Below are positions 38,344 through 58,371 of a DNA stretch of 64,000 nucleotides, one piece after another. The notes under the pieces are model-generated. The model was not told the origin of the DNA. It did no database searches and saw nothing but the letters and a program-made list of their open reading frames with translations. This DNA comes from Promethearchaeia archaeon (GTDB lineage: Archaea > Asgardarchaeota > Lokiarchaeia > Sigyniarchaeales > SOKP01). Position numbers and translations under genes: made by a program. Numbering within the stretch: position 1 is the first letter of the stretch; every line of letters begins with the position of its first letter. The stretch lies in assembly GCA_029856125.1 (NCBI GenBank), contig JAHQWJ010000007.1, forward strand, positions 1-64,000. Reading direction: 5' to 3'.

Positions 38344-38490
38344 CTTAAATGGGATCATTTAACCTTCTATTTAAAGATCACGATTATGAAAAAAAGGTAA
38401 AAAGTTTAGTAATAATAAACATCATTTAAAAATACTTAAAAACCTAAATTTCTATAATCTTTCAATAATTATATTTCATTGGAGTTTGAG

Positions 38491-40771: not shown

Positions 40772-41263
40772 ATGGCTTCAGACTATAGCGTAATTTGTAA
40801 ACTTGGAGGATATGTGAATTCTAATCCAGAGATTATTAGCTCCTATCCCTCGCTAGATCAGTCATTAGAAGCAGAAATCCTTTCAAAATGCTTTCCCTTG
40901 GGCTCAAAATATGGAGAATTCATTGTAGAAAAGCATCGTAAATATAGCGTGTTATCGTATGTTTTTAGGATCAATCAAATAGCAGAAAGAGATGATCTTT
41001 TCTCATTGTCGGTTTTATTAAATAAAAGAGATAAAACTGAGATATATATGCCAGTTTTGAAAAGCTTGATAGATAAATTGGATGAAAATAATATACTAAC
41101 TCAAGATATTCTAACTGAATACCAAAAGGTTATATTTGAAGGGATTAACCAAGAACAAGATATTGACATAGAAAATGTGTTAATAGATTTCTCGAACATT
41201 TTTAAAGAAATTAAATCGAAAATACTTAAAGAGAAACCAGAATTAAAAGGGAGTTTTTTATAA
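40772..41263 (+). CDS. Stand-alone uDENN/longin-like protein (cassette 1, gene A)
   Basis: PEIISSYP...EILSKCFPLG matches the uDENN P-x-I-x3-YP...CFP-x-G pattern; paralog at 53432. Confidence 0.6.
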   Translation: MASDYSVICKLGGYVNSNPEIISSYPSLDQSLEAEILSKCFPLGSKYGEFIVEKHRKYSVLSYVFRINQIAERDDLFSLSVLLNKRDKTEIYMPVLKSLIDKLDENNILTQDILTEYQKVIFEGINQEQDIDIENVLIDFSNIFKEIKSKILKEKPELKGSFL

Positions 41264-41923
41264 ATGGCTGAAGATTTATTTTTACACGGGCTGGAAAACA
41301 TTGGATATCTATTGAATGTTATTATAATCCCCTTGGCAACGGTTTTAGTAGGGAGGAAGCTTTTAAAGGAGAAAAAGGCAACTGGAAAATTAAATGATAT
41401 TCGTGCTATAATCTTCTTTGTATTCTTTAGTTTTTCAAACCTAGTAATACTAGAATTTCTCATCGGAACTCAATTTTACGATACAACAACAAGAGCATTT
41501 CTAGCAAGTATATTTGGTGGAACCCTTGATGTTTTTAATGTCTATTCATTTGTAATTGGAATCATCGCATCGTTAGGTCTGATGATGGTCGCTGTAGCAA
41601 ACAGATGGGACTTTTTGCAGTATACTTCTATGTTCTTCTTCGGAGGAATGATCCTACTATATACCTTTACTGGCTTCCAAGCATTTTTAGCGCCTTACAT
41701 ATATTTTGCAGGAGGTGCAAGCATAGTTTTTCTGTATCTAACAGCATTTCGTGTAAAAGATAATGGTGCTTTAGCACTGGCTATATTTTTTACTCTCGCC
41801 TTTGGCACTGTCATTGTTGATGTAGCTATGATCACAGGATTTGGCGTAATAATATACAATGGTGTGATCCTAATCTTTTCATTAGGATTGTTTAAACCGT
41901 TTAAAAAGGAGGTTATGGCTTAA
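41264..41923 (+). CDS. 7-TM membrane protein (cassette 1, gene B)
   Basis: Seven hydrophobic segments; ATG directly after upstream TAA; paralog at 53935. Confidence 0.75.
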   Translation: MAEDLFLHGLENIGYLLNVIIIPLATVLVGRKLLKEKKATGKLNDIRAIIFFVFFSFSNLVILEFLIGTQFYDTTTRAFLASIFGGTLDVFNVYSFVIGIIASLGLMMVAVANRWDFLQYTSMFFFGGMILLYTFTGFQAFLAPYIYFAGGASIVFLYLTAFRVKDNGALALAIFFTLAFGTVIVDVAMITGFGVIIYNGVILIFSLGLFKPFKKEVMA

Positions 41924-41924
41924 A

Positions 41925-42575
41925 ATGGCGGAAATTGGCTTTTTAGTCGTTGAAATCATTTATTTTATATTTGGTATATTAACGATCTTGAAGACTATGA
42001 AAAATTGGAAGTTGAATAAGAATAGGATGCTTCTTACCGTAACTGTCTATATTTCTTCCATTCTTGTGAGATCTATTATTGATATGGGTGTTTATGCCTC
42101 AGGTTTTGATATCGATATTACAGTAGCGGGGGGGCTTGATATAGGTATGATTATGGGATTCATATTATTTACGATTCAACTTGAATTTATGTTTTATTTA
42201 ATGGATTTACCCAAATTATACACGCTTCCAGTTATTATCACTACTTATCTAATGATGGGAAGAATCTTAGTTGATTCGAGTATACCTTTTATTATATATG
42301 CTATGATAACTGGTTATGGATCCGCGTTCTTTCTTATAAAAGATGGAAGAAAAAGTCGTAATGGATTAGCTATTGGAATGGGTTTGTTCTTTCTTTTTTG
42401 GGGTCTCGGATCTACCTTCCAAATTGAAATTCTATTTGTCTCTTTGAGATTAGTTGCAATGATAGCACTCTTTCTAGGAACAAAAGGTTTTTATGAGAAA
42501 TATGTATTCGTCAATGTCGAAGAAGAGCAGAAAATAATGGGAACCTGGATTGCAAAATTGGTAGTAAAGGAATAA
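41925..42575 (+). CDS. 7-TM membrane protein with conserved cytoplasmic tail (cassette 1, gene C)
   Basis: Seven TMs; GRKSRNGLA loop; tail EEQKIMGTWIAKL; paralog at 54581. Confidence 0.75.
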   Translation: MAEIGFLVVEIIYFIFGILTILKTMKNWKLNKNRMLLTVTVYISSILVRSIIDMGVYASGFDIDITVAGGLDIGMIMGFILFTIQLEFMFYLMDLPKLYTLPVIITTYLMMGRILVDSSIPFIIYAMITGYGSAFFLIKDGRKSRNGLAIGMGLFFLFWGLGSTFQIEILFVSLRLVAMIALFLGTKGFYEKYVFVNVEEEQKIMGTWIAKLVVKE

Positions 42576-42839
42576 TAACGATTTTTTTTATTTTTTTCTT
42601 ATAACGTTAATTCTATTTGGAATATCAACAAGATTTTAATCTAATTTTAGCTTTGTATTTTTATTGTTAATTCATTTTATTCTATTGATAAAAAGGAAAA
42701 TAAACGCAGCAAAAAAATAATTCTGTGGCAACATAACAAACAAAAGAATAAATAATTTCGTTTTTAACTGTAAAGTTATACTATATTTTCAAGATATAAT
42801 TTTAAGTATTTTTCATAAAATAAATTAAAACTGAGCAAA

Positions 42840-43736
42840 ATGGGAATTAAAGATATTTTAAAACGAGTATTTACCAAAGAAAAAAAGATTGTTATAACCG
42901 GGCTTGACAGTGCTGGCAAAACGACCATGATTAGCTTCCTACAGAATGGAACTTTCATGGAACATGCACCAACGATGGGCAAAGAGTTATCTCAAATTGA
43001 AGTTCAGGGAATTCGTATAAATGTTATGGATATGGGTGGGCAAAAGGATTTCAGAAGTTTATGGGTTGGAGAAGCCTCGACTGCTGAGTGTGTAATATTT
43101 ATGATCGACGCATATGCTCCAGAAAGATTCAACGAAGCTAGAAACGAGCTATGGAAATTATCTTCTATTTTTAAGAAGAAACCCTTGATAATATTAGCAA
43201 ATAAGTACGATTTGCAACCGGTTGCATCAATTAGTGAAATTATCGAAGCTTTGAATTTGAAAGATCTACCCTCTTTTGAAGTATTACCGATTTCGTGTAA
43301 AACTGGGTATGGAATTGTAAAAGCATTTATGAAGATTTATTACAAATTGACTGGCCAGCTTCTAACCCAAAAGACAAACCTTCGAGCGATTACCGTTTTT
43401 GATCAAGGGGGAATTCCTTTAACGTCATCTTCAAACGAAGATATATTACAAGGGGGATTATTTACCGCCATCAATAATTTTGTAAGAGAGTCTTTTAATT
43501 CAGAACTCGATCAACTTAAAATGGGAGGACATCTTATCCTCTTCAAACGATCTAAACATCTTATGGGCTCAATAGTAGTTAGTGAAAACGACAACATTGA
43601 TATCCAAGAAATAGAATCAGGATTAAATGATTTATTGCTCCATTTAGAGCACATGTGCCCTGAGCTCGAGAAAGATCAATTAAATTCTAGTAAAATTGAG
43701 TATTTAGTGGAACAATACGCTTCAAATCTGTTATAA
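42840..43736 (+). CDS. Arf-like GTPase fused to C-terminal longin domain (cassette 1, gene D)
   Basis: MG-amphipathic helix, GLDSAGKTT, PTMG, DMGGQ, NKYD, SCK; then ITVFDQGGIPL..GLFTAINNFVRE longin. Confidence 0.9.
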   Translation: MGIKDILKRVFTKEKKIVITGLDSAGKTTMISFLQNGTFMEHAPTMGKELSQIEVQGIRINVMDMGGQKDFRSLWVGEASTAECVIFMIDAYAPERFNEARNELWKLSSIFKKKPLIILANKYDLQPVASISEIIEALNLKDLPSFEVLPISCKTGYGIVKAFMKIYYKLTGQLLTQKTNLRAITVFDQGGIPLTSSSNEDILQGGLFTAINNFVRESFNSELDQLKMGGHLILFKRSKHLMGSIVVSENDNIDIQEIESGLNDLLLHLEHMCPELEKDQLNSSKIEYLVEQYASNLL

Positions 43737-43855
43737 ATCTGTTTTTAGTTTTTTTTCTTTTTAAATCTTTTTATTTAATAAAATACTTAATCGTTAAATT
43801 AGTGTATATTAAAGCTTCTTATTCAAACTGAGAATAACTATTATAAGAGAAGGCG

Positions 43856-46213
43856 TTATTTATTACTGAATTTCTCTAATAAACCTTTTTGAAGCTTATC
43901 TATTGACTCTTTAATGGTATCAATAAAAGGATTAATCTCTTTCCCAAGATCCGGGTTAATATCAATTGCTTTTTCGAGGTTTTGAAGTGCTGAATGGTAA
44001 TCGTTCTTATCTAAATAGGCATAGCCCATAAAAAACCAAGCAGTCGCATAATTCGGATCTATTTCTGTTGCTTTTTTATAGGATTCAATTGCTACGTCAT
44101 ATTGTTCCTCGTGTTTATAAGCATTTGCCAAATTATAATGTGCTAAAGTATAAGTGGATTCAAACCCAACCGCTATTTTATAAGAATCTATTGCTTGATC
44201 AAATTGATCTAATTTTTCGTAACTAAAACCCATGTGGTTCCAAGCTTTTGCGTGGTTCGGATTGAGATCGATGGTTTTTTTGAAGTACTCAATCGCGGTA
44301 TTATAATCTTGTTTCTCGTTATTTGCAATGCCAATGTAGTAATAAGCGTCGATATAAGTGCTATCTAATTCTATCGCTTTATTACAATCTTTGATAGCGG
44401 TATCGTAAGATCGTTTTTCAATTTCTAATTTCGCTTTTTCTATCAACTTTAATCTGTATTCGTATTTTATAGCGATGCGATTTTTAAATTCTGGACTTTT
44501 TATTGAATCGTTAATGTTAATTGCATTTTCAAAGTTTTTGAAGGATTCACCAAAATTGGTACTTTCTGCTAGTTGGACGCCCTGTTCGACTAGTAGTTTA
44601 ATTTTAGAATAAAATACCTCGTCAATGGATTTCTTGATCAGCTCCATCTCTTGAAATCTACGCGTAGGGTCATCTATTGTTTTTGCGTAATCCATTTTTT
44701 TATTTAGTTTATCTAACTCCTTTTCAAATTTTTGGAGTTCTTCAGATAAATCCCCACGATCTACTAAATCTTTTAATTCTGCTTGATACACCAGCCCTTT
44801 TATTTTATTAATTTCTTCTTCCATTTCTTGCGTTAAGTACATTTTATTAGTTCCTTCTAATGCTCTATTAAAGGTTTTAATAGCTTCGTCGTAATTTTTG
44901 TTCGCCAACTTATCATTTCCTTCCCTAACAACTTCCTCTATTTGAGCCAAATACACTTTGTTGACTGTATTTTTTAAATCTTCTAAGTCTTCGTTAGTTT
45001 CCTCAGAGATTGGTAGTCTTTTTGCTATGCTAATTGCTGCATATAGATCATTAATAGCCTTTTCGTAGTCTCCTTGCCCAATTTTTTGAATAGATTTCTC
45101 TTTAATAAATTTGATCCGAATTTTGCACGTATTATTAATAGATTTAGTTATTTCACTTAAGGTTTCGCTCTTCTCGTTTGAATCAGCCATTTTTTCTGCC
45201 AATTCTAAGGACTTGTCGAAAAAATCTAATGCATCATTCACTACAGCTATATTTTCTTCAAAGTTATCTTTAATTGTTAGTTCTTTTCCTTTATTAAGGA
45301 TAGGATTAATTTTCTCCAAATAAATTGGATTTAGCACTACTGATGCCATTGAATTGATTCTTTGTATTTCTGATTTCTTGTAATCCGAATCTACCATTTT
45401 TTTAGAAATACCTATAGCTTCTTTGTATTTTTTAGTAGCGTCCTCGAAAGTGTTTTCTTCATATCGTTTTTTACCGTCTTCCATGATAGCATTTATTTTC
45501 TCTGAGTATAATTGATTGCTCAAATTAATTGAATTCTGTTTATCCGTGTGTTTTAATTCAGAATCAAAATATTTATCCACTATCTTCAAAGCCTGCTGGA
45601 ATTCTTCAAGGGCTTTATCTAGATTACCAATTTCTTTAAATTGATTAGCTTTTTCAATCACAGCGGAAACTTTTAATGAAAAAGTTTGATTAATAGTATC
45701 TTCAATTTTTTTTATCATTTGATCTTCTAAATCTTCCATGTAAAAATCTTTTGCAGCGTCTAGTGTGTCGTATAACATGCCTATGGCTTTATCTAGCTCT
45801 TGTTTATTCTTCACTAGGATGGCTTGATAGAGAGATTCTTCGATCCTTGTTTTATTTATCAGATAACTAATCTCTTTGACATCATAATCTTTCATATCTT
45901 TATCTACTATCTTGTCAGCAATTCTCGCTGCTTCGTCGAAAGTGTTGAAAGCAGAACCAAAATCTTTATCTATTATGAAAGTTCTTGCCTCGTCAATAAT
46001 ATCTATGATTTTAACAGAATATATTTGATCTATTTGGGATTTAATGTTTCTTATTTCATCCTTGCGCTCCTCTGGTTCTTTAACTCTCTCTTCGACGAAT
46101 CTTAGAGCTTCTAAATACTTTTCGACAGCGTCATTGTATTTTTTAAGATTTTTAAATTCATTCCCTTCTTGCATGATGGAATTAAGTTTCTTTAAGTCAG
46201 ATTTCTTTACCAT
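43856..46213 (-). CDS. Large TPR / alpha-solenoid protein
   Basis: Canonical TPRs at C-terminus (AWNHMGFSY, AHYNLANAY, AWFFMGYAY); degenerate helical repeats before. Confidence 0.88.
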   Translation of the reverse strand: MVKKSDLKKLNSIMQEGNEFKNLKKYNDAVEKYLEALRFVEERVKEPEERKDEIRNIKSQIDQIYSVKIIDIIDEARTFIIDKDFGSAFNTFDEAARIADKIVDKDMKDYDVKEISYLINKTRIEESLYQAILVKNKQELDKAIGMLYDTLDAAKDFYMEDLEDQMIKKIEDTINQTFSLKVSAVIEKANQFKEIGNLDKALEEFQQALKIVDKYFDSELKHTDKQNSINLSNQLYSEKINAIMEDGKKRYEENTFEDATKKYKEAIGISKKMVDSDYKKSEIQRINSMASVVLNPIYLEKINPILNKGKELTIKDNFEENIAVVNDALDFFDKSLELAEKMADSNEKSETLSEITKSINNTCKIRIKFIKEKSIQKIGQGDYEKAINDLYAAISIAKRLPISEETNEDLEDLKNTVNKVYLAQIEEVVREGNDKLANKNYDEAIKTFNRALEGTNKMYLTQEMEEEINKIKGLVYQAELKDLVDRGDLSEELQKFEKELDKLNKKMDYAKTIDDPTRRFQEMELIKKSIDEVFYSKIKLLVEQGVQLAESTNFGESFKNFENAININDSIKSPEFKNRIAIKYEYRLKLIEKAKLEIEKRSYDTAIKDCNKAIELDSTYIDAYYYIGIANNEKQDYNTAIEYFKKTIDLNPNHAKAWNHMGFSYEKLDQFDQAIDSYKIAVGFESTYTLAHYNLANAYKHEEQYDVAIESYKKATEIDPNYATAWFFMGYAYLDKNDYHSALQNLEKAIDINPDLGKEINPFIDTIKESIDKLQKGLLEKFSNK

Positions 46214-46388
46214 ATTCTATTCGCCTAATCTATTTATCAGAAACATTTTACATTTTAACAACTAATCCACTAGAATTATTCTAAATTTTAAAAACTTTTC
46301 TTATAAATTACTTACTCAAAGGAAAAAATCAATTTTTAATTTATTTAAATCAATTCTTATATTATAAAAATTAACAAATATTGGTTTT

Positions 46389-48008
46389 ATGAGCATGACA
46401 AATTTAGAAAAAAAAATTTATTTTGGAGGCTCAATAGTAACTATAAACGAAAATCAACCCTTCGTTGAGGCTGTAGGAATTAAAGGAGATAAAATAGCTT
46501 CTGTGGGAACATTGGAAGTAGTTAAACTTGAAATGGGCAAAAATTGTGAGTTCATTGATTTAAAGGGAAATACATTACTTCCAGGCTTTATCGACTGTCA
46601 TTTGCACCCGATGGGTTATATAAGCCATTTATTAAATCCTGATTTAACTAATGTTAAAAGTCTAAAGGAATTAAAGGATTTGTTAAAAATTTTATCAGAA
46701 GAAACAAAAATAGATGAATTTATAATCGCTTATAATTTTAGTGAAGAAAGATTCGATGATCCGATATTACCCAATAGATGGGATATTGATGAAGTATGTC
46801 CTAATCATCCCGTTTTCATTTTACGATATGATGGTCATATTGGTATCGCTAACACAAGAGCATTGAATCTGGTAGAATTAGATGAAGATACTCAAGCTCC
46901 CGAGGGTGGTGAAATCAGAAAAGATAAAAGTGGCAATCTTACTGGTGTCATTTCAGAAAACGCGTTAAACTTAATCTTTACAAAAATTCCTACTCCAAAT
47001 GATGTAAAAATTGCTGCAGCTACTAAAAAAGGCTCTAATAATTTAGCTCAAAAAGGTTTAACTTCATTTCATGGCATCATCAACGCTGATGCTCGTTCTA
47101 AAACTAGTAATCGAAAAACAGATGAATTTTCCCTCTTTACTTCGGTTAAGAACTATTTTTTGCAGGATTGTTACACCTTTATAGAAACTAATTATCCCGA
47201 AAAAGTAATTGAATTAAGTAAAAGCTCTTTAAACGAATGTTATTCTGATAGTAAAGCAAAAATAGGAGGATTAAAACTTTATCTCGACGGTTCATTCGGA
47301 GCAAAAACTGCGTGTATGTTTGAACCCTTTACTGATGCACCGGAAGAATGCGGGTTTTGCGTAATTGAAGAAGAAGATATATATGAAAAAATGAAAGTCG
47401 CTCATAACAATAGACTTCAAATTGTAATTCACGCAATCGGAGATAAAGCAAACCGGATAGCTATGGATTTGTATAAAAAACTATTGACTGAATATCCTAG
47501 GAATGATCCCCGTCACCGAATAGAACATGCGTCTATGCTAACTGAAGATGTTATTAACGATATGTCTGAATATGGTATTATCGCGTCTTGTCAACCTCCC
47601 TTTATTAATTCTGAATACAACTGGATAGCAAAACGAATTGGTGAAGAGCGATGCAAGTATACATATCCAATAAAATCAATAGTTCAAGCTGGTGTTGTTT
47701 TAGCTTCAGGATCAGATTGCCCAGTTGAAGACCCTAACCCTATTTTGGGGCTACATGCGTTAGTAACAAGAAATTCCTTCGTCCCTGAAGAGTGTCTAAA
47801 CGTAGAAGAGGCTTTAAAATCGTACACTATTAATGCCGCATATGCCGCTTTTGAAGAAGATGTTAAAGGCAGTATAGAAGTGGGAAAATTGGCCGATTTT
47901 GTAATCTTGGATCGTAATCCTTTAAAAGTTCCAAAAGATGAAATTAAAGAGATCCGGGTAATGAAAACTATTATAAGAGGTAAAACGGTTTTTAAGATGC
48001 AGAGTTAA
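46389..48008 (+). CDS. Amidohydrolase 3 (YtcJ-like)
   Basis: PGFIDCHLH, KLYLDGS, HAIGD, RHRIEHAS, GSDCPV, GKLADFVILD. Confidence 0.92.
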   Translation: MSMTNLEKKIYFGGSIVTINENQPFVEAVGIKGDKIASVGTLEVVKLEMGKNCEFIDLKGNTLLPGFIDCHLHPMGYISHLLNPDLTNVKSLKELKDLLKILSEETKIDEFIIAYNFSEERFDDPILPNRWDIDEVCPNHPVFILRYDGHIGIANTRALNLVELDEDTQAPEGGEIRKDKSGNLTGVISENALNLIFTKIPTPNDVKIAAATKKGSNNLAQKGLTSFHGIINADARSKTSNRKTDEFSLFTSVKNYFLQDCYTFIETNYPEKVIELSKSSLNECYSDSKAKIGGLKLYLDGSFGAKTACMFEPFTDAPEECGFCVIEEEDIYEKMKVAHNNRLQIVIHAIGDKANRIAMDLYKKLLTEYPRNDPRHRIEHASMLTEDVINDMSEYGIIASCQPPFINSEYNWIAKRIGEERCKYTYPIKSIVQAGVVLASGSDCPVEDPNPILGLHALVTRNSFVPEECLNVEEALKSYTINAAYAAFEEDVKGSIEVGKLADFVILDRNPLKVPKDEIKEIRVMKTIIRGKTVFKMQS

Positions 48009-48081
48009 GACCTCCAAAAAATTCTCTAGCTAGCCGAATTTTTCCTCTAGAAAGACCTTTTTATTTAAACATATATTCTTA

Positions 48082-48143
48082 TTCCTCGCGGGAAGTATCC
48101 TCCATTAACAATAATTTTTTTAATGGAATCATCTACAAAAGAT
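48082..48143 (-). ncRNA. Eukaryote-type SECIS-like stem-loop (cis-acting element)
   Basis: Minus strand AUGAU-UCCAUUAA-AAAAAUUAUUG-UUAAUGGA-GGAU: AUGA/GA core, 8-bp helix, A-rich loop, weak GU-rich lower stem. Confidence 0.45.
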
Positions 48144-48145
48144 TA

Positions 48146-48349
48146 CTATTTTCTCTCAGCGACAATTAAATAGAACACAACTAAAATTGCAGAAACTATA
48201 TAACCCACGGCTGAGATTATATCGAATTCAATCACTCTATTACCTCAAGCTAAAATATCATTTGCCATAATTGTCCCGAAAACCCCCATAGCTAAGAATA
48301 CAGTACTTAAAGTTAGTAAGAACATAGGTAAAGCTTCTAAAAATCTCAC
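48146..48349 (-). CDS. Small 2-TM protein with in-frame UGA: candidate selenoprotein (alternatively a TGG>TGA pseudogene)
   Basis: GTG start; MRFLEALPMFLLTLSTVFLAMGVFGTIMANDILA-TGA(48247-48245)-GNRVIEFDIISAVGYIVSAILVVFYLIVAERK-TAG; SECIS-like hairpin 13 nt after the stop. Confidence 0.45.
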
Positions 48350-48454
48350 TTTCTAATCTTCTCTTTAATATTTTCTATGTATTATTATGTAAAACAGAAA
48401 TGATACTTATAAATTTTATATATAAGGGGAAAAAAAAGTGATCAAAAACGAGAA

Positions 48455-49606
48455 TTAATCTGTAAAATAAAGGTGTTCATCAAAACCAGTTTCGCTTATA
48501 AGATCTTGACCAAGCTTTTGAATCGCTTTTTTAGATGGCTTTTGTAAAATGCGTCTGCAAATGTTAACAACTTTAGTTAATTTGGCATCGGAAAAATCCC
48601 GCACAATATTATCATATCTTGAAAAATCTATTCCTGCTGTGTAAACTCCAGCACTGGAGTGGTCTGCAGATGATGAGACTTGCCAATGCTCTACTTTTAA
48701 CTCAATTTTTGAAAGTAGTAAACTATCGGTAAACCATTCAATGTACAAATCCATTCTTTTTGATTTTCTTTTTGTTGTTTTAAGTATTTTAAGCGCACGA
48801 GTTAATCTATCGGGGTGCATTTGTCTAAATACTTTCTCTTGAAGATCGGAGAGGTCATCTTTAACGTGTGCTTTTATCTCATCTAGAATAACAATTACTT
48901 TTTGCGCTCTTTCTTCTGTAATATCTTGATGAATAGTTTGTATATGTTGAGCAATTGATGCGTTTAAACCATTACTTTGATCTATCGACGTTTCTTGAGG
49001 ACTTTGCTCGGATGTAGAGGAAGTTTGTTGTATTTCCGAAGGTAAATTATAAATTTCTCTTTGTTGTAGGTTAAACAAGGCCTCTAATCTCGAAGGATCT
49101 TGTCGCACTTCGTTAAATTTTTCTTGAATATCTTCTCGAGAGTATCCCATGTTCATTAGATAAAACGCAGCGCTTGCTAATTGGTTTTCTAGTGCTTCTG
49201 CAGTGTTGTAATTACCACCACCGAATTGTTGTCGTAGTTGGTCATCTGCTACCAAGCTAATTTTTTCTTCGATTATTTCATCGAGCTTGAGATCGTTTAT
49301 TTTCGTTAAAATGTATTCTACTTGATCGCTTCCAAGATAGCTAAGATTCCCAATAGGACCAACTATATAAGCGATTTTTTCCATCTTCTTTAATAATTCG
49401 GCTATGTCGTTCTGAGATTTACCCTTTGAAATCGTTAAAAAATGTTCCAAGAAGTTTTTATTAAATCCAGCAATGATTTTAACATAGTCCTCATCGAATT
49501 TATTAAGATGATCATCTAATCCATTGTTCTGAAATTCTGGAGGTAGATTAATATTATAGACCATAATATTATCTAAAACCATGTAAACATAATCAGATTT
49601 GTTCAT
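48455..49606 (-). CDS. Hypothetical protein with internal UBA-like motif and Q/S/T-rich linker
   Basis: AAFYLMNMGYSREDIQE resembles the UBA L-x-x-MG-Y/F-x-R motif. Confidence 0.55.
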   Translation of the reverse strand: MNKSDYVYMVLDNIMVYNINLPPEFQNNGLDDHLNKFDEDYVKIIAGFNKNFLEHFLTISKGKSQNDIAELLKKMEKIAYIVGPIGNLSYLGSDQVEYILTKINDLKLDEIIEEKISLVADDQLRQQFGGGNYNTAEALENQLASAAFYLMNMGYSREDIQEKFNEVRQDPSRLEALFNLQQREIYNLPSEIQQTSSTSEQSPQETSIDQSNGLNASIAQHIQTIHQDITEERAQKVIVILDEIKAHVKDDLSDLQEKVFRQMHPDRLTRALKILKTTKRKSKRMDLYIEWFTDSLLLSKIELKVEHWQVSSSADHSSAGVYTAGIDFSRYDNIVRDFSDAKLTKVVNICRRILQKPSKKAIQKLGQDLISETGFDEHLYFTD

Positions 49607-49730
49607 GAGAGCGCTTATCGGTTAGAATTGTTAATCTAATTTTATAGAAATTAGATTTATTGCAATGTAAATTTACTAAATAATAAAATTTGTACAATAA
49701 ATACTTTACATTATCGAATTATTATTATTA

Positions 49731-50222
49731 TTATCGAATCGTTTGATATTTTTTTGCTATTTTTCGAGCAAAATTCATTTGTTCTTTGGTCTCAAGGCTA
49801 CATGATCTGTACTTCTTTATCCATTTTACGGGGTCCATTGACTTTGGTATATAACCGTTCTTTGCCCCCCAAGCGACTATAAATTGTCCAGTTCTTCCAC
49901 AACCTGCGACACAATGAACTACAATTGATTCATTTTTTAACCCATGTTTATCACAGATGGCTAAGAATGTTTCGATTTGGTTTTCTGTAGGTAATCCGTA
50001 ATCTGGAACGTTTATATGATAAAATTCAAACGAATTTCGAATCTCCCTGCTGTTTTCAAATTCTGTGCAGTTTATAACAACTAGTATCCGTTCCTCTTTA
50101 AACTTTTTGATTACAGGTGGGTCTGGCCACCAACTAGCTGCTATTTTCCCTTTAACGATCCAAGTAAATGGCTCAGATTTATAAGGCATCCCATCTATAG
50201 GCCAGTAAGTTGGTCTAACCAT
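49731..50222 (-). CDS. Dual-specificity protein phosphatase
   Basis: VPDYGLP acid loop, HCVAGCGRTG, SLETKEQ. Confidence 0.9.
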   Translation of the reverse strand: MVRPTYWPIDGMPYKSEPFTWIVKGKIAASWWPDPPVIKKFKEERILVVINCTEFENSREIRNSFEFYHINVPDYGLPTENQIETFLAICDKHGLKNESIVVHCVAGCGRTGQFIVAWGAKNGYIPKSMDPVKWIKKYRSCSLETKEQMNFARKIAKKYQTIR

Positions 50223-50309
50223 AGCACTCTTATCATATTTTAATTAATCTTAAATCTTTATAATCTTTAAAGAGTAATAATAATTAATACAATTTAGAGC
50301 TTATTAAAA

Positions 50310-50780
50310 ATGACTGGTAAAAAAACTTTAAAACCCTTCGATTTAAGGCAATATCCCATAGTTCCATTGGTTGGAGTGGGGGTATTGTTAACCAGGGATA
50401 ACTCTTTATTACTAGTAAAGCGAAAATACAATCCCGATGCTGGTTATTGGGCAATTCCCGGAGGACACTTAGACCTTGGTGAAAGAACTGAAATTGCAGC
50501 TGAAAGGGAAGCTTATGAAGAAACAGGCTTTAATGTGAAAGTTTCTAAACTAGCAGGCATAATTGATAAGATTATGTACGACACCAACGGTAAAGTCGAA
50601 TACCATTATGTTTTGATTAATTATTTTGTTGAACAGATAGAAGGAGATCAGAACCAACAACCAATACCAAATTCTGACGCTTTAGATGCTAAATTCGTGG
50701 ATTTTGATGATTTAAATAATTATACTTTAACAGAATCATTAATTGAGCTATTGAAACAGTTAAAAATAGGTTATGATTAG
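50310..50780 (+). CDS. Nudix hydrolase
   Basis: GGHLDLGERTEIAAEREAYEETG Nudix box. Confidence 0.93.
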   Translation: MTGKKTLKPFDLRQYPIVPLVGVGVLLTRDNSLLLVKRKYNPDAGYWAIPGGHLDLGERTEIAAEREAYEETGFNVKVSKLAGIIDKIMYDTNGKVEYHYVLINYFVEQIEGDQNQQPIPNSDALDAKFVDFDDLNNYTLTESLIELLKQLKIGYD

Positions 50781-50862
50781 ATAAATTTTATTGAAGGATA
50801 TGATTAAAGTTTGGAATACCTTTGATGAAGCTCTTGCCATAATGGGAAATTTTACTTCTTTT

Positions 50863-51765
50863 TTATTTATGCTCAAATGAGTCGTGTATGAAATTGCTTA
50901 TTTTCTCTATGGCTTTTTGACTCTCAGGTGCGACTTTTGCAAATACAGGAAATGCGTGTATCATATCTTCCCAAATATCTAGTATCACCTCTACTCCTGC
51001 TGACTTAGCGTTTTCTGCTAGACGAATAGAGTCATCGTATAGAATTTCTGCTGTGCCCGCTATGATAAAGAGTGGAGGTAATCTTTGGAGATCAGCATAA
51101 ACTGGTGAAATGAAAGGGTTTCTAGGATCATTTTCCTTTACATAAAGATTCGCTGCAAAATCTAAACCATGTGGAGTAGTAAAAGGATCTTTATTTGCTC
51201 TTGCTTTAAATGTTTCACCGGTAAAGGCTAAATCTGCCCATGGTGAAATACATACTGCTGCCGCTGGTAGTTTGGTTCCTAAATCTCTTAACTTTAAAAG
51301 CGTGGCAACAGTCAGTCCTCCACCAGCTGATACTCCAGCAATTACTATTTTATTGGGAGTAAACTTTTTTTCTTTCATAAGCCAATTATAAGCTTTTACC
51401 GTATCATCTAAAGCTGCTGGAAAAGGGTCTTCAGGAGCTAGTCTATAATCTACACTTAGAAGTTGTGCTTTAGCGAAGCGAGAGATTAATACTGCATGGT
51501 ACTTAGATGTATCAACTGATCCTGCGATATAGGCTCCTCCATGTAAAAATAATACAATACGATCATTTTTTGATTCAGGAGTAAAAAACAAATTACACCA
51601 CAATCCATCAATATCTATTAGTTCAGATTTCACATCATCCGGGAGTTTAACTCCTTCGGTCATTACTTCCAATCCTTTACGGTGATCTTGTACTCGCTTT
51701 TTAATTTCAAGGGACCTATTATAAAACAATCCCTTAATTACATATCCCATTTGTTTACTAACCAT
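50863..51765 (-). CDS. Alpha/beta hydrolase (HSL family esterase)
   Basis: HGGAY, YRLAPE, GVSAGG, MIHAF. Confidence 0.92.
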   Translation of the reverse strand: MVSKQMGYVIKGLFYNRSLEIKKRVQDHRKGLEVMTEGVKLPDDVKSELIDIDGLWCNLFFTPESKNDRIVLFLHGGAYIAGSVDTSKYHAVLISRFAKAQLLSVDYRLAPEDPFPAALDDTVKAYNWLMKEKKFTPNKIVIAGVSAGGGLTVATLLKLRDLGTKLPAAAVCISPWADLAFTGETFKARANKDPFTTPHGLDFAANLYVKENDPRNPFISPVYADLQRLPPLFIIAGTAEILYDDSIRLAENAKSAGVEVILDIWEDMIHAFPVFAKVAPESQKAIEKISNFIHDSFEHK

Positions 51766-51956
51766 AACATATCCCCATAATGCTTTTGAGTATAAAAATT
51801 ATACATATGAAATAAATATAGAGATTGATAAGTGCTATTTGAATTGTTTTATTATTTATTAAACAAAAGAATTTAATTCTACTTTTATTATTACTTATAG
51901 AAAACTATCATTTAACGAATTGTAAATGCTAAAATAATTGATAAAGGCTAACTGAT

Positions 51957-53270
51957 TTGTCCACACTTATTAGAACTGCGAGAGAAGGAAAAATTACTAA
52001 AGAGATGGAAATAGTTGCTCAAAAAGAGCAAGTTGATGTTGATTACATACGCAAAGGCTTAGCAAAAGGACGGATAGTTATTCCAAAATCCAATCGACGC
52101 GATACCGAACCTATGGGTATAGGGGAAGGCTTATTAGTAAAGATAAACGCTAATATTGGTTCCAGTAAACGAGTATGTAATATTGAAGAAGAATTAGAAA
52201 AAGCCAAGATCGCTGTAAAATTTGGGGCGGATACCGTTATGGATTTAAGCACTGGAGTAACTGAAGTAGATGTTAATAACATTCGGAAACAAATTTTAAA
52301 CGAGATTAAAGTTCCAATAGGAACAGTTCCAATTTACCAATCTGCATTAAGAGCTCTAGAGAATAAAGGAGCTATTATAAATTTTGATGAGGACGATCTT
52401 TTTAATGTGGTGGAAGAGCAAGCTAAGGAAGGGGTGGACTTCTTTACAATTCACGTAGGGGTGACTAAGGATCTTGTTAATTACCTAAAAGACCACCCAA
52501 GAACCATGGGGGTTGTTTCGCGCGGAGGGACTTTTTTAGCTGCTTGGATTTTGGAGAATGATTTAGAAAATCCGTTTAATCGTAATTACGATTATTTATT
52601 AGATATGGCTAAACAATATGACTTTACCCTTTCGCTTGGCGATGGCATGAGGCCGGGGAGTATCTTCGATTCAACAGATTACGCTCAAATTCAAGAACTT
52701 ATGGAAATATCCAAATTAGTTAAGCGTGCTTGGGCACAGAACGTTCAGGTAATGGTTGAAGGACCGGGACACATCCCTGCCAATGAGATCGAAAGAAACA
52801 TTAAAATTATGAAATCTCTATGCGATAACGCACCCTTTTACGTGTTAGGGCCTTTAGTAACTGATATTGCTCCGGGATACGATCACATTGTAAGTGCTAT
52901 CGGTGGTGTTATGGCGGGATTAGCGGGAGCTGACTATCTCTGTTACGTTACTCCATCTGAACACTTAGCATTACCTAACAAGGAAGAAGTAAAGAGAGGC
53001 GTAATTGCCTCAAAAATCGCGGCCCACGCAGTAAATATAGCCAAATACGGGAAAAGAGCATCAGACTGGGATTTAAAAATGGATATAGCTCGAAAGAATC
53101 TAGATTGGGAAGGAATGATACAACATTCAATAGATCCAGAATTATCCCGGGAGATCCATTATCGAAATGGAAAGATAGAGAATGATGTTTGTAGCATGTG
53201 TGGTGAATTTTGCGCAATTAAAATCCTACAAGACGCATTAAACAAGACTGCTTCAAAAAAAATAGTATAG
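51957..53270 (+). CDS. thiC: Phosphomethylpyrimidine synthase
   Basis: KINANIGSS, DTVMDLST, SRGG, EGPGH, YVTPSEHL, CSMCGEFC. Confidence 0.95.
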   Translation: MSTLIRTAREGKITKEMEIVAQKEQVDVDYIRKGLAKGRIVIPKSNRRDTEPMGIGEGLLVKINANIGSSKRVCNIEEELEKAKIAVKFGADTVMDLSTGVTEVDVNNIRKQILNEIKVPIGTVPIYQSALRALENKGAIINFDEDDLFNVVEEQAKEGVDFFTIHVGVTKDLVNYLKDHPRTMGVVSRGGTFLAAWILENDLENPFNRNYDYLLDMAKQYDFTLSLGDGMRPGSIFDSTDYAQIQELMEISKLVKRAWAQNVQVMVEGPGHIPANEIERNIKIMKSLCDNAPFYVLGPLVTDIAPGYDHIVSAIGGVMAGLAGADYLCYVTPSEHLALPNKEEVKRGVIASKIAAHAVNIAKYGKRASDWDLKMDIARKNLDWEGMIQHSIDPELSREIHYRNGKIENDVCSMCGEFCAIKILQDALNKTASKKIV

Positions 53271-53431
53271 ATAATTTAATACTAACCGTTTGTAGATGCG
53301 ACTTAGGTCTTAATTTACAATTTCGGTAAACTTAAATTTAAATAATTAAACTTTTACTATTTATTAAATCGCTATTAGGTTAGGGGTAATAGCTAAGGAT
53401 TAAGAATTCTAATTAAAGCAATACCATTTTT

Positions 53432-53935
53432 ATGATTGAAAATACAGAACGGTATATACTATGTAAATTAGGAGGTTTCGATTTATCTAATCCAGAGATT
53501 GTCATCTCCTATCCTACTCTTGATCCTACCCTCAGCGAATCAGAGGATTTACTTTCTAAATGTCTCCCAATAGGTATTAATAGTGGAGATTTTTCAGTTA
53601 GCAAATATAGTAAGTGTAATGTTTTGTCATATGCATTCAAAATAGAACATGAAGAAGAAAGAAACGATTTATTAACAATTTCTATTCTTTTAAAGAAAAA
53701 GTTAAATGTTGATGTTTACAAACCAGTTTTAGAGAACATTATCTCTACATTGAAATATTGCGACCTGCTAACTGAAAAAATTTTGGCAGATTATATTCAA
53801 ACTATTTATAATGGTATTAATGAAGAAAAATTAATATTGATCGATGGTGTTCCTATCGATCTATCAATCATTTTTAAAGAGATAAGATCAAAAATATTTA
53901 AACCAAGACCTGAAGTAAAAGGGAGTTTTTTCTGA
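53432..53935 (+). CDS. Stand-alone uDENN/longin-like protein (cassette 2, gene A)
   Basis: CKLGG..SNPEIVISYP..LLSKCLPIG; ends EVKGSFF like paralog ELKGSFL. Confidence 0.6.
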   Translation: MIENTERYILCKLGGFDLSNPEIVISYPTLDPTLSESEDLLSKCLPIGINSGDFSVSKYSKCNVLSYAFKIEHEEERNDLLTISILLKKKLNVDVYKPVLENIISTLKYCDLLTEKILADYIQTIYNGINEEKLILIDGVPIDLSIIFKEIRSKIFKPRPEVKGSFF

Positions 53936-54588
53936 TGTTAGGACAAGCAGTTGATATAATAGAACTTATGGCAAATTATCTTGGAATTATTATTATTCCA
54001 ATTATGACGATCATTTTGGGTAGAAAAGTGATTTTAGAAAGAAGAGAAATAGAAAAGCTTAATATGATTAGATTTATTATTTTTTGCATTTTCTTAACGC
54101 TTTCCTGGATGCTAATATGGGAGTTTATTTATGAAAGCACACCGCTCGGTGATGTTCTCAATGTAGAATTAATAATCTCAATTAACACATTTTCGTTTTA
54201 TAGTTTTGGCTTAGGATTAATGATCACTCTAGCTATATCAATGGTGAGTTATACAAATCGATGGGAGTCGCTATATTACATATCCTTTTTTATATTCGCA
54301 GGAATGTTTATCGTATTTTTGTCAACAGAAATATCTATTTTTCTTCTTCCTTATGTTTTTGCGGGTGGAGTAATAGCAGTTGTGTTTTTATTTGCTACTG
54401 GGTTTAAATTTAAAGATAATAGCTCATTAGGGCTGGCTATCTTTGCTACTCTCATTTTTCCAACCCTAATAGCAGAAAAAACGATAGTTGGACAGATGTT
54501 AAGTTTAATATATCCTATTTTTGGGTTAATTTTCGCCCTCGGTTATTTCAAATTATTTAAAGCAAAGGTGGTTGAGCAAAATGAGTGA
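53935..54588 (+). CDS. 7-TM membrane protein (cassette 2, gene B)
   Basis: TGATG overlap; shares IIIP..T..GRK, NRW..L.Y, KDN..L.LAIF with 41264 paralog. Confidence 0.75.
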   Translation: MLGQAVDIIELMANYLGIIIIPIMTIILGRKVILERREIEKLNMIRFIIFCIFLTLSWMLIWEFIYESTPLGDVLNVELIISINTFSFYSFGLGLMITLAISMVSYTNRWESLYYISFFIFAGMFIVFLSTEISIFLLPYVFAGGVIAVVFLFATGFKFKDNSSLGLAIFATLIFPTLIAEKTIVGQMLSLIYPIFGLIFALGYFKLFKAKVVEQNE

Positions 54589-55228
54589 TTTACCAATATT
54601 TTTATTATTAGAAGTTGTTTTTTTGGTTTTTTGCATCGTTACAATACTGATTATTCTCAGAACATACTTAGAGATTAGGGAATCTATTTATCTTGGATTA
54701 ATGGTTTTCTTTGCTGCAATGCTTTTTAATTCACTTTTTCGGATTATTAATCTATTCATTACACTAGATTTGACTGTCGGAGTCAAACTAAGCTCATCTA
54801 ACATTATCGCCCTATTAATTTTCAGCATTCAACTGCGATTCTTCCTTTATTTAAAAAAACTAATAAAATTATATTGGCTTCCATTAGTTGCCAGTTTCTA
54901 CATAGGTTTTGGGCTAATTGTAAATGCTTCTCTAATATTTTTTATCTCTTATGCTGTAGTGATCGGTTTTGTTATTCCTGTCATACTATTAAGAGAAGGC
55001 AGAAAAACACGTAACGGTCTTGCCGTTGGACTTGGAATATTCTTTCTAATATATGGACTAAGTAAAATGCTTCAAGTTCCATTCGTACCTGAATTATTAA
55101 GAATTATCGGAATAATTATCTCCACTTTAGCAGTTTTAGAGTTCTTTGATAAGTATCTTTTCTACGATAAGGAAGAAAAAGAAAAAATTCAGAACGCTTG
55201 GATTTCAAAACTAACTGATAAGAAATAA
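54581..55228 (+). CDS. 7-TM membrane protein (cassette 2, gene C)
   Basis: Overlapping start; IQL.F..YL..L.KLY.LP, GRKTRNGLA, tail EKEKIQNAWISKL. Confidence 0.75.
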   Translation: MSDLPIFLLLEVVFLVFCIVTILIILRTYLEIRESIYLGLMVFFAAMLFNSLFRIINLFITLDLTVGVKLSSSNIIALLIFSIQLRFFLYLKKLIKLYWLPLVASFYIGFGLIVNASLIFFISYAVVIGFVIPVILLREGRKTRNGLAVGLGIFFLIYGLSKMLQVPFVPELLRIIGIIISTLAVLEFFDKYLFYDKEEKEKIQNAWISKLTDKK

Positions 55229-55405
55229 AAGGATTCTATGCAAAATAGATAAATTTTTACACTATTCTTTGACTTAAGTTTAAATATAAAAACTCTTACT
55301 ATTTAGTTAAGCTCTATGGTCTAAGGGATAAGGGACATGGAAAAAATTTTTTTGTGTTCAAATCACTCGCTCTAAAAATTATTAAAATAACAGATGTGAG
55401 AAATA

Positions 55406-56305
55406 ATGGGTGTTAAAAATATTTTGCATAAACTTTTCGCTAAGGAAAAAAAAATTGTAATCTGTGGGTTGGATAATGCAGGAAAAAGCACTTTAGTAAG
55501 CTTTCTCCAAAATGGAACTTTTGTTAAGCACACTCCTACTATGGGAAAGGATTTAACTAAATTAGAAGTTCAAGGTATTCCTATAAATCTTATGGACATG
55601 GGTGGTCAAAAAGATTTTAGAGATATGTGGTTAGGAGAACTCTCAAACGCATCATGTGTAATTTTTATGATAGACGCTTACGCCCAAGAAAGATTTAACG
55701 AAGCGAAAGACGAATTATGGAAACTATCTTCAGTTTTTAAGAAGAAACCATTAATTGTATTAACAAATAAGAACGATATGACTCCAGTAGCTTCCGCGGG
55801 CGATATTATAAAAGCGCTGGACTTGCATAAAATTGATACATTTGAAATACTTCCTATTTCCTGCAAAACGGGATATGGTATTGTATCAGCATTCACGAAA
55901 ATTTATCACAAACTTACTGGGAAACAGTTAGGTAATGCAGTAACTCCTAAGGCAGTAACAGTTTTTGATAGGGGAGGAGTCCCATTGACATCTTCTTCCA
56001 ATCAAGATATCTTGCATGGCGGTTTATTTGCTGCTATTACTCAATACGCTAAAGAGTCTTTTAACTCTGAACTAAATCAAATTAGACTTGAGGGTAATAT
56101 TATCCTTTTTAAACGGACTAACCACCTAATGGGATCGATAGTTCTCAGAGAAGAGGATAGTGAAATGATAAAAGAAGCAGAAGTAGGATTAGGTGAATTG
56201 CTTTCACATCTTGAACATATGTGCCCTGAACTTGAAAAGGAGCAAACGGATGCTAAAAAAATTGAGTATTTAGTCGAGCAATACTCTTCAAATCTTATGA
56301 ATTAA
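55406..56305 (+). CDS. Arf-like GTPase-longin fusion (cassette 2, gene D)
   Basis: MGVKNILHKLFAKE, GLDNAGKST, DMGGQ, NKND, SCK; C-terminal longin; close paralog of 42840. Confidence 0.9.
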   Translation: MGVKNILHKLFAKEKKIVICGLDNAGKSTLVSFLQNGTFVKHTPTMGKDLTKLEVQGIPINLMDMGGQKDFRDMWLGELSNASCVIFMIDAYAQERFNEAKDELWKLSSVFKKKPLIVLTNKNDMTPVASAGDIIKALDLHKIDTFEILPISCKTGYGIVSAFTKIYHKLTGKQLGNAVTPKAVTVFDRGGVPLTSSSNQDILHGGLFAAITQYAKESFNSELNQIRLEGNIILFKRTNHLMGSIVLREEDSEMIKEAEVGLGELLSHLEHMCPELEKEQTDAKKIEYLVEQYSSNLMN

Positions 56306-56362: not shown

Positions 56363-57769
56363 TTACTCATTATCTATAACTCTTACAATTTTAATCAATT
56401 TTTCAATCATATCCTTAGAAGTTTTGCTAAACAACCTAACCATCGGTTCTTTACCGATCGATCCTTTGTCCCAAATAAGATCGGGTATCTCACCCATTTT
56501 ATTTATGCTTTCTTCAATTAGCCATCTCATTGTAGATCGTTCCTCATGTTTAATGGAGTCTGGTTGTGATTCCCTCAATAATTCAAATGTCGTTAAGTTT
56601 GTTTTCTCTTGAATTCCTTTAACATACTTTTCTTTATATCGTAGATTTGTAACAAAGTTAATCGAGTTGTCAAATTCCTTTGCTGAAAGAATCAGTCGGG
56701 CAGTGTGATCTGATACGTTAAATTTTATTTCTCCGGAAGCATGTGGATACCCCCCTATAATTGTTATTCTCCCTTCAATTCCCGCTATTTCTTCTTTACT
56801 AGTTGCATTAGGTAAAGAACCCGAAATATTCATTCTTACTTCAGGTATTAACTTTCTAAATTTCGTATTATTAGAAACATAATTATAAATCTCCTTTATC
56901 TGATCAATAACCTCGATCTGTTCTTGTCCTAAAGTTAAATCTAATATTTTACCTTGTAGCGGTAATTCAATATATGATTGAAATCTGCTGTTGAAAAATG
57001 TTTCTGCTTTTTCTATTGATGCTCTTATAGAATTTTCTAATGACAAATAAGCAGTAATTGCCGAAGAAAAAACACACCCCGTTCCATGTATGTTTCCTTG
57101 AAATGATGATTTTGGCTTTTCGATTATTTTAAAATCAAGAGTGCCTTTAGTTTTCTCAAAATTACTCACGCAAACAAGGTCAAATATATTATTTTTAGTA
57201 GTTCCTGCACTTTTTATTACAACGGCTTTTTGATTTTCGGAAATTTTGTGATCCACATACATTTTTTTAATTATGATCTCTGCTGCATCTTTGAGCGATT
57301 CTATGTTATCTAAAGTAATATTTTCAAGTTCTTTATTAGCGTAATAACTCGCTTCACCAAGATTTGGAGTTAGAATAGTTACTAAAGGAAAGAGCTCTCT
57401 TTCAATTTCAATTTCAAGTCCTTCGCTCGATAGTCTTTCACCAACACTAGAGATATTAACGGGGTCTAAAACAGCAATTAAATTATGAGTTAGAATCGTG
57501 TTTTTTATTATATCTAAAGACCTATTATCCGGGATCATCCCTATCTTCACATACTTGATAGCGTATGAATTCAAGATAGCATCAAGTTGCTCACCTAATT
57601 CATCTGAGAGCGATTTAAATCCATAGAATTCGGTAGCTGTTTGATATGTAATTGCTGTAATTGCAGAGAAAGGATGAACACCAATTCTGTCAAAAGTTCT
57701 GATATCAGCCTGAATTCCGGCACCAGATGTAGGATCAGAACCTGCGATGGTTAAACAAAATGGTTTCAT
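56363..57769 (-). CDS. thiD: Bifunctional HMP/HMP-P kinase - thiamine-phosphate synthase (ThiD-ThiN)
   Basis: LTIAGSDPTSGAGIQAD, LTPN, HGTGCVFSSA; ThiN part LIPEVRMNI, GRIT, SDHTAR, GKEPMVR. Confidence 0.92.
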   Translation of the reverse strand: MKPFCLTIAGSDPTSGAGIQADIRTFDRIGVHPFSAITAITYQTATEFYGFKSLSDELGEQLDAILNSYAIKYVKIGMIPDNRSLDIIKNTILTHNLIAVLDPVNISSVGERLSSEGLEIEIERELFPLVTILTPNLGEASYYANKELENITLDNIESLKDAAEIIIKKMYVDHKISENQKAVVIKSAGTTKNNIFDLVCVSNFEKTKGTLDFKIIEKPKSSFQGNIHGTGCVFSSAITAYLSLENSIRASIEKAETFFNSRFQSYIELPLQGKILDLTLGQEQIEVIDQIKEIYNYVSNNTKFRKLIPEVRMNISGSLPNATSKEEIAGIEGRITIIGGYPHASGEIKFNVSDHTARLILSAKEFDNSINFVTNLRYKEKYVKGIQEKTNLTTFELLRESQPDSIKHEERSTMRWLIEESINKMGEIPDLIWDKGSIGKEPMVRLFSKTSKDMIEKLIKIVRVIDNE

Positions 57770-57795: not shown

Positions 57796-58371
57796 TTATT
57801 TAATTCTTTCATACGCCCATTTTGCTTTATCATCTAAACCTAAGGCTTCATATGCCTTTCCAAGGAAAAGAAATCCCTCGGGATGGTCGTATTTTTCTTT
57901 TACTAATTTAAATAACTGATTAATTGCCAGATCATAACGACCTCTCACGTAATTAATCTTACCTTTTAAAAATAAAATATCTTGCCCCTTTTGGATTGAG
58001 TTACTACCGTTATTATGTAAGTCTAACCGTGATAAAGCGTAGTCATACTCTTGTTCGTTAATTAGAATATCAATGGATTCGATAAACTTTAGAAAGGACA
58101 TTTTCGAGGCAATTACTTCCATTTTTTTTAACTCTTCTGTTTTGAGTTCGTTATTTAATGCTGTCAGCTTCTCCTCCTCTCTAAGTTTTATAAAATCTTT
58201 GAACTTGTCAAGCACTCCGTTTGAATATGGAGCTCTACATAATGGACAATTAGAAGAATGAGGTAACCACTCCTTCAAACAATCAGTATGAGCCGAGTGC
58301 CCATTAGGACAATTTTGAACCGAATCTACGCCTTCAATTATACCCAAATGACAAATTATACAACTAGCCAT
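57796..58371 (-). CDS. RING-H2 finger + TPR protein (putative E3 ligase)
   Basis: CIIC...CPNGHSAHTDCLKEW...CPLCR; C-terminal TPRs (LFLKGKINY, FLFLGKAYEALG). Confidence 0.85.
   Translation of the reverse strand: MASCIICHLGIIEGVDSVQNCPNGHSAHTDCLKEWLPHSSNCPLCRAPYSNGVLDKFKDFIKLREEEKLTALNNELKTEELKKMEVIASKMSFLKFIESIDILINEQEYDYALSRLDLHNNGSNSIQKGQDILFLKGKINYVRGRYDLAINQLFKLVKEKYDHPEGFLFLGKAYEALGLDDKAKWAYERIK

Follow-up and report, generated by a model that had tools for sequence, protein, structure and literature searches.

Two copies of a four-gene cassette

The window analysed here, the first 64,000 nt of contig JAHQWJ010000007.1 from a Promethearchaeia archaeon (assembly GCA_029856125.1), contains two copies of a cassette of four genes encoding a stand-alone longin-domain protein (A), two seven-helix membrane proteins (B and C) and an Arf-family GTPase with a C-terminal tail (D). 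We conclude that this module is real, conserved and apparently undescribed, and that it is a variant of the systems combining a longin GTPase-activating protein (GAP) with a small GTPase; signalling like that through G-protein-coupled receptors (GPCRs) is put forward as a hypothesis. As described in an earlier note on this DNA, all eight genes are intact and are arranged in the same order on the + strand, with copy 1 consisting of A1 (40772..41263, 163 aa), B1 (41264..41923, 219 aa), C1 (41925..42575, 216 aa) and D1 (42840..43736), and copy 2 of A2 (53432..53935, 167 aa), B2 (53935..54588, 217 aa), C2 (54581..55228, 215 aa) and D2 (55406..56305, 299 aa). The two copies start 12,660 nt apart (about 12.6 kb in the note) and have unrelated flanks, with copy 2 placed between a thiC-type gene (51957..53270, + strand, named from our reading of the sequence) and a thiD-thiN gene (56363..57769, - strand, assigned from Pfam Phos_pyr_kin and ThiN matches and synteny), both outside the module. 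The tight junctions were also read correctly: A1 and B1 abut (TAA-ATG), B1 and C1 are separated by 1 nt, A2 and B2 overlap in TGATG, and B2 and C2 share 8 nt, followed by gaps to D of 264 nt in copy 1 and 177 nt in copy 2 (180-270 bp in the note).

The copies are 47.9% (A), 40.0% (B), 35.0% (C) and 67.4% (D) identical (shuffle z 25-80), in agreement with the earlier estimate that the GTPases had remained two-thirds identical while the membrane proteins had diverged more. A search of the genome yielded no further copy of A, B or C. When compared with close orthologues, all tested genes are under purifying selection, with ratios of nonsynonymous to synonymous substitution rates (dN/dS) of 0.06-0.19 in copy 1 and 0.11-0.32 in copy 2 (A2 0.16 against the orthologue in genome G309, B2 0.32, C2 0.26 and D2 0.11). 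A scan for promoters and terminators at the cassette returned matches at chance level only. The stretch encoding the conserved KGSF at the C-terminus of A overlaps with GGGAG, a ribosome-binding-like sequence for B (41246-41263 and 53917-53935), and therefore part of the KGSF conservation may be at the RNA level.

Protein D is an Arf-family GTPase with a tail

The G domain of D (residues ~1-172 of D1) is of the Arf type, with Pfam Arf matches at E 2.6e-34 for D1 and 1.1e-34 for D2, a score of 118 bits for Arf versus 48 for Ras, and invariant G1-G5 motifs. The best matches in the PDB are 8oun and 8oum (E 2e-33), which we take for the structures of Asgard ArfR from Vargova et al. Residues 2-12 form an amphipathic N-terminal helix (hydrophobic moment 0.69 in D1 and 0.47 in D2), for which membrane binding is predicted. 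As the catalytic Gln68 is present and switch I holds His42 in place of a cis-arginine, D should need an arginine supplied in trans. An assignment of D as a G-alpha subunit was rejected, since G1 and Thr45 are 17 residues apart with no insertion for a helical domain, switch I has no cis-arginine, and the Pfam G-alpha score is far under the cut-off.

Of the earlier designation of D as an Arf-longin protein, the Arf switch and amphipathic N-terminus stood up well, but the C-terminal tail (~178-298) has only weak Fuz_longin_1 and roadblock matches (E ~0.005). Tailed Arf-like proteins are common in the genomes compared, and a quick tree of Asgard proteins places D among them with a Shimodaira-Hasegawa-like approximate likelihood ratio test support of 98.9, and with weak support at deeper nodes. 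A fifth cassette gene encodes a free-standing homologue of the C-terminal domain of D at three loci (L184:3984-4433, L196:2934-3338 and L181:2519-3025), and its product is a possible second longin partner for A.

Protein A resembles the arginine-finger longin NPRL2

The AlphaFold2 (AF2) model of A1 (pLDDT 91 on the predicted local distance difference test) consists of a longin domain and a short tail only. Its best fold match is NPRL2 (8fw5_B, VIA Z 14.1, 142 residues aligned, root mean square deviation (rmsd) 3.1), followed by the yeast SEA-complex chain that is the NPRL2 counterpart (Z 12.9), with all remaining matches at Z 11.2 or below, including the longin subunits of adaptor protein (AP) complexes and COPI (Z 8-9) and DENND1A (Z 8.0); Foldseek matched the model to GATOR1 chains at E 1e-5. 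The cDENN and dDENN modules are absent from A and there is no DENN Pfam match, and hence the earlier reading of A as a uDENN/DENN guanine nucleotide exchange factor (GEF) fails. Sequence searches gave little else: Pfam returned nothing useful for A, B and C or for wide alignments of A and of the Heimdallarchaeial protein E (see below), narrow A profiles had no match in the PDB, and a genome search with PF06218 was uninformative, as it gave zero matches with the controls included.

The residue of interest, Arg73 in the loop joining strands 4 and 5, does not vary across 42 cassettes, and A2 keeps the arginine. Combined with other Asgard longins in one profile, A matches residues 9-111 of human NPRL2 (E 1.7e-5), which places the Arg73 column on the finger residue Arg78, a register which is transitive via the other Asgard longins and was counted from residue 9. 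The arginine is present in 65/65 A homologues adjoining a GTPase and in 18/23 without one, although related sequences are not independent in these counts. Since Arg147 of SMCR8 is the catalytic finger acting on Arf1, the longin class of A can act as an Arf GAP (PMC8213707). With NPRL2 as the best match and the finger arginine kept, A is more likely to be a GAP than a GEF or a plain adaptor, and we consider it a candidate GAP on the basis of sequence and model. Related NPRL2-like longins with a GP motif and the arginine are fused N-terminally to a small GTPase at two loci (L206:318-1499 and L208:1-1188); these are possible cis-GAPs, and were counted in favour of A as a GAP.

Proteins B and C are a receptor-shaped pair

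Both B and C proteins have seven hydrophobic segments, are oriented N-out/C-in according to the positive-inside count, and are paralogues (hhalign 94.9%, E 4e-8). The cytoplasmic loops and helix halves are clearly better conserved than the outer ones, and C has a conserved cytoplasmic C-terminal helix (W208-I209). The AF2 model of C1 (pLDDT 90.6) shows seven helices and this C-terminal helix, and the fold of B is assigned by homology to C only. In the VIA ranking of the C model natural GPCRs occupy 44 of the top 50 rows, the best having Z 13.6 (borderline for helical bundles) with 187 residues aligned and rmsd 4.0, whereas Foldseek gave no match at E<=0.001; the nearest predicted structures in the atlas are a prokaryotic seven-transmembrane (7TM) histidine kinase (TM 0.74) and GGDEF/MASE3 sensor domains. 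The earlier assignment as 7TM proteins therefore holds for the helices and, for C, the GPCR/7TM fold. The GPCR motifs DRY, CWxP and NPxxY and the disulfide of the second extracellular loop are absent from the B and C sequences and alignments, and there is no Pfam 7tm match. B1 and C1 contain no cysteine, the third inner loop has only some 8 residues and the outer loops are tiny. A microbial rhodopsin was rejected because neither B nor C has a conserved retinal lysine in TM7. The top 50 fold rows for C contained no rhodopsins, PQ-loop/SWEET proteins or other transporters, which is weak as an exclusion, and the failure to find longer, fused forms of B is likewise weak evidence. As the fold of C is GPCR-like and nearest to prokaryotic 7TM sensors, B and C are receptor-shaped, and a putative sensor role is plausible by analogy.

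Several relatives of B and C differ in form or context. C homologues of 300-325 aa (P0277-P0321; L106:5001-5975, L174:2888-3850, L175 and L176) carry a zinc-ribbon-like domain (CPxC...CxH) at the C-terminus, on the cytoplasmic side. An atlas search with B1 gave look-alikes at the feature level (0.94) in clusters of Nanobdellota, and HisKA_7TM as a weak lead (0.77). B-type genes that occur solo, with no A, C or D (L192:3036-3686 and L193:3200-3844), adjoin genes for a corrinoid protein and a URO-D-like methyltransferase.

Linkage is conserved but gene order is not

The host is an Asgard archaeon of Lokiarchaeia type, its closest relatives being Promethearchaeota (Lokiarchaeia) genomes, and C had matches in 22/301 sampled Asgard genomes, all of them from the same order as the window. 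We assembled 43 complete four-gene cassettes in three arrangements: A-B-C-D in the genus of the window, D-A-B-C in other families and in some genera (L095, L096, L098, L106, L165, L174-176, L184 and L196), and D divergent from A-B-C (L173). Synteny was thus retained for the linkage but not for the order of the genes, and that the four genes stay linked in spite of reordering points to a shared function. A D-A-B-C copy is also present in the cultured Ca. Lokiarchaeum ossiferum (C is UYP48259.1, NEF87_004544), the locus tags of which were not found in the supplements of the L. ossiferum paper. Two Logan contigs of ~3.4 kb (L228 and L229, from SRR32148623 and SRR32148622) contain only this L. ossiferum D-A-B-C cassette and a convergent roadblock gene, which would hint at co-transcription if these runs are RNA. 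At L095:436-1837, a D-A pair without B or C is found 2 kb away from a complete D-A-B-C cassette.

Distant A homologues occur in families with proteins named Heimdallarchaeota, in which the gene after A encodes an Arf GTPase of ~177 aa that has no tail, and the next one a different seven-helix protein, E. In Heimdallarchaeia every strong E match adjoins an A homologue (35/35, cross-tabulated by hand), mostly as A-Arf-E trios with up to 7 per genome, and several Heimdallarchaeial loci have A-7TM pairs without any GTPase. An interrupted E or A gene was seen in two trio copies (G262:C55:152438-153208 and G232:C49:47582-48080), consistent with turnover of a multi-copy module.

Copy 2 is not a recent local duplicate

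Copy 1 is located at the ancestral site common to the genus, with an FAD-oxidoreductase gene upstream and a tetratricopeptide repeat (TPR) gene downstream. The thiC-thiD site of copy 2 contains no cassette in 28 other loci of the genus, in which the two genes are at most 1.5 kb apart in 24 cases and abut in about 16; only G309 shares copy 2 at this site. In a concatenated tree copy 2 branches outside the entire copy-1 clade, and a recent in-place duplication, with both copies and their closest kin in a single clade, was rejected (approximately unbiased (AU) test, p 0.0004). From this it follows that copy 2 represents either an old paralogue or a copy acquired by transfer, so that the term duplicated in the earlier note is accurate for the presence of two copies but not for a local event. 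Second copies have been gained separately in G186, G324 and G371. An assembly artefact was rejected as the copies are only 35-67% identical and G309 holds both at the same sites.

When copy 1 is compared with the G309 orthologues, B1 is 48% identical, as against 73, 71 and 95% for A, C and D, and the tree of B is discordant, which together suggests exchange of B alleles, with that of B1 swapped relative to close relatives. The faster change of the 7TM genes and the B swap fit the earlier suggestion of variable inputs on a conserved switch, but are no proof of it.

A proposed membrane-associated Arf switch

The linkage, the folds, the arginine register and the purifying selection form the basis for a model to which we give about an even chance, in which D acts as a switch that binds the membrane, A serves as its arginine-finger GAP, and B and C form a membrane platform that localises or gates them. 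GTP-loaded D would bind the membrane via its N-terminal amphipathic helix, as experiments with Asgard ArfR lead us to expect, and A would supply Arg73 in trans to turn D off, with the tail of D itself or another A as its second longin partner. The conserved cytoplasmic face of B and C may contact and recruit or gate A and/or D, and the variable outer face might respond to a ligand or lipid, which is the least supported step. No GEF for D was identified among the genes analysed. The more ambitious version is doubtful: here the stand-alone GPCR-fold pair would sense a lipid or a signal from outside, and would directly control the action of an NPRL2-type arginine-finger GAP (or exchange) on an Arf GTPase that binds the membrane. 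If true, it would represent an archaeal receptor-coupled small-G-protein circuit with parts later used by eukaryotes in GATOR1/C9orf72 and GPCR signalling.

In a complex prediction A scored 0.34 against D+B+C, with a best control of 0.08 when D was replaced, at least 95% contact agreement between runs and a partner pLDDT of 76. This is weak support, although the fall to 0.08 indicates that the signal depends on D. The score mark was reached by 58/80 solved and 2/110 mismatched pairs, but at scores of 0.60 or below by just 7/80 solved pairs and both mismatches, and A was scored against D+B+C jointly, with B-C, A-B/C and D-B/C contacts not separated.

A number of observations weigh against the proposed switch. 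The complex prediction is weak, comes without given contacts, and may reflect likeness to the solved GATOR1-Rag or C9orf72-Arf1 complexes. At the position before strand 2 where GAP longins are proposed to have a typical GP motif (PMC12290439), both window copies and most Lokiarchaeial cassettes have NP and the A homologues of the Heimdallarchaeial trios have GL, while A homologues with an intact GP have no adjacent GTPase; the arginine is frequent also in homologues without a neighbouring GTPase. The longin GAPs of eukaryotes depend on a second longin subunit, and the cassette does not encode a separate one. Stronger conservation on the cytoplasmic side is common among membrane proteins. Finally, homology of E to the Lokiarchaeial B and C was not detected by hhalign (1.5-11%), save for a weak C-terminal match, and in the quick tree D and the trio GTPases are not sisters, nor was a single clade of all module GTPases recovered. 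A single origin of both modules is therefore not established, and they may have been assembled separately.

Two alternatives were considered unlikely, to a similar degree. In the first, which follows the GPCR/G-protein-like logic proposed in the earlier note, B and C are a receptor heterodimer that activates D by nucleotide exchange, either directly or via A as a GEF. The GPCR topology and fold of C, the tight translational coupling of A-B-C, the variable outer faces with swapped B alleles, the frequent role of longins as GEF subunits and the lack of another GEF are all in keeping with this, but A resembles GAP longins, keeps the finger arginine and has no cDENN/dDENN, B1 and C1 lack the GPCR motifs and cysteines and have a short third inner loop, and the nearest predicted structures are prokaryotic sensor domains. 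Moreover, D has neither the helical domain nor the cis-arginine of G-alpha and no G-beta is linked to it, which leaves the G-protein comparison as analogy only.

In the second alternative, which follows the binding of Arf1 to longin subunits in AP and COPI, A and D-GTP form an adaptor- or coat-type complex on B and C as passive anchors or cargo-like scaffolds, with no sensing and possibly no catalysis by A. While the AP/COPI matches of A, the tiny outer loops and the GTPase-less A-7TM pairs at Heimdallarchaeial loci agree with such a role, an adaptor needs no invariant arginine at the finger position, and the repeated retention of diverged whole cassettes and the B swapping suggest specificity.

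That the D/A switch instead controls B and C as transporters, transceptors or membrane enzymes is very improbable, for although there are conserved polar residues in buried positions (Arg47 in B and, in many C, an arginine in TM7), corrinoid/methyltransferase neighbours of the solo B-type genes and a weak fold match of C to the ceramidase ACER3 (Z 9.6, rmsd 8.1), there is no conserved histidine set for a CREST-type zinc site, no TM7 retinal lysine, no Pfam match, and no transporter in the top 50 fold rows of C.

The proposed switch bears on two points in the recent literature: the regulators that Asgard Arf GTPases have natively 'remain to be established' (PMC11914678), and which GTPase is paired with the arginine-finger longins of Asgards was left as an open question (PMC12290439). 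The module names matched candidate Arf/longin pairs, with Arg73 as a one-residue target on two small soluble proteins; a single genome supplies two cognate/non-cognate A-D pairs, and a cultured organism, Ca. L. ossiferum, carries a copy. If A is a GAP, longin GAP chemistry would be older than eukaryotes and would have begun on Arf, and if B and C gate the A/D switch, there would be an archaeal precedent for 7TM control of a GTPase switch.

Neighbouring genes

Two genes 5' of copy 1 lies a gene for a 254-aa protein (38479-39243, + strand) with an N-terminal longin (Fuz_longin_1, E 0.001), and a 250-aa open reading frame (ORF) occupies this position in L001, L002, L004, L006 and L007. The 785-aa TPR protein (43856-46213, - strand) is convergent on D1 and is kept beside the cassette genus-wide. 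A 163-aa protein (49731-50222, + strand) with a CX5R motif resembles dual-specificity phosphatases. On the other side of copy 2, a gene conserved adjoining thiD (57796-58371, - strand) encodes a 191-aa possible E3 ligase with an N-terminal RING-like Cys/His pattern and a TPR-like tail, followed by a 521-aa protein combining Roadblock, a Rab-like GTPase and a tail (58475-60040, + strand), and then a second long small-GTPase ORF (~60015-61739, + strand).

Comparison with known systems

No description of this operon was found in the literature searched (subscription papers were outside its scope), in line with the earlier note. The eukaryotic counterparts are the longin GAPs GATOR1 (NPRL2 Arg78, acting on Rag), FLCN-FNIP (Arg164, RagC) and C9orf72-SMCR8 (Arg147, Arf1) (PMC8213707, PMC9473554, PMC12290439), with which A shares the NPRL2 longin fold and an arginine in register with Arg78. 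The neighbouring GTPase is of the Arf family as in C9orf72-SMCR8, and the layout of D, a GTPase with a longin/roadblock-like domain, is reminiscent of Rag. Unlike these systems, A consists of a 163-aa longin alone, lacks DENN modules and a separate partner subunit, has NP for GP, and is encoded in an archaeal operon with two 7TM proteins.

Within the Asgard archaea, D resembles ArfR/AArf (bioRxiv 10.1101/2024.02.28.582541; PMC11914678) in its Arf profile, amphipathic N-terminal helix and 8oun/8oum matches, but differs in its longin/roadblock-like tail, the Met for Trp before the DxGGQ motif, and its fixed gene partners; no native regulator is named in these two papers. NPRL2-like and GP-motif longins, and an operon of roadblock, Rab-like GTPase and DENN genes, have also been reported from Asgards (bioRxiv 10.1101/2020.10.19.343400; PMC12290439); A belongs to that longin class, and the operon likewise joins a small GTPase to a profilin-fold regulator, to which the cassette adds the Arf partner and the seven-helix proteins.

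Actinobacterial conservons, which have already been likened to G-protein-coupled systems (PMC13343842, PMC13621833), are similar in being multi-copy prokaryotic operons in which a membrane sensor is combined with a small GTPase and its likely GAP of profilin fold. They consist of a histidine-kinase-like sensor, a roadblock/MglB GAP, a DUF protein and a Ras-like/MglA-type GTPase, whereas B and C have no kinase domain, A is a longin and D is Arf-type, with no family-level homology between conservon proteins and A-D as tested.

With GPCR-G protein systems the cassette shares a seven-helix N-out fold adjoining a GTP switch, and LYCHOS (GPR155), which binds GATOR1, is an earlier example of a sensor of GPCR fold that acts on a GAP containing NPRL2 (PMC11525196, bioRxiv 10.1101/2024.11.21.624772). 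Unlike either, the cassette has no GPCR motifs, G-alpha helical domain or G-beta/gamma, and B and C have no sequence link to GPCRs or LYCHOS, their fold being nearest to prokaryotic 7TM sensor domains. The parts of the module were already known separately, as Asgard Arf GTPases, NPRL2-like longins, the roadblock-Rab-DENN operon, Asgard 7TM clusters and conservons.

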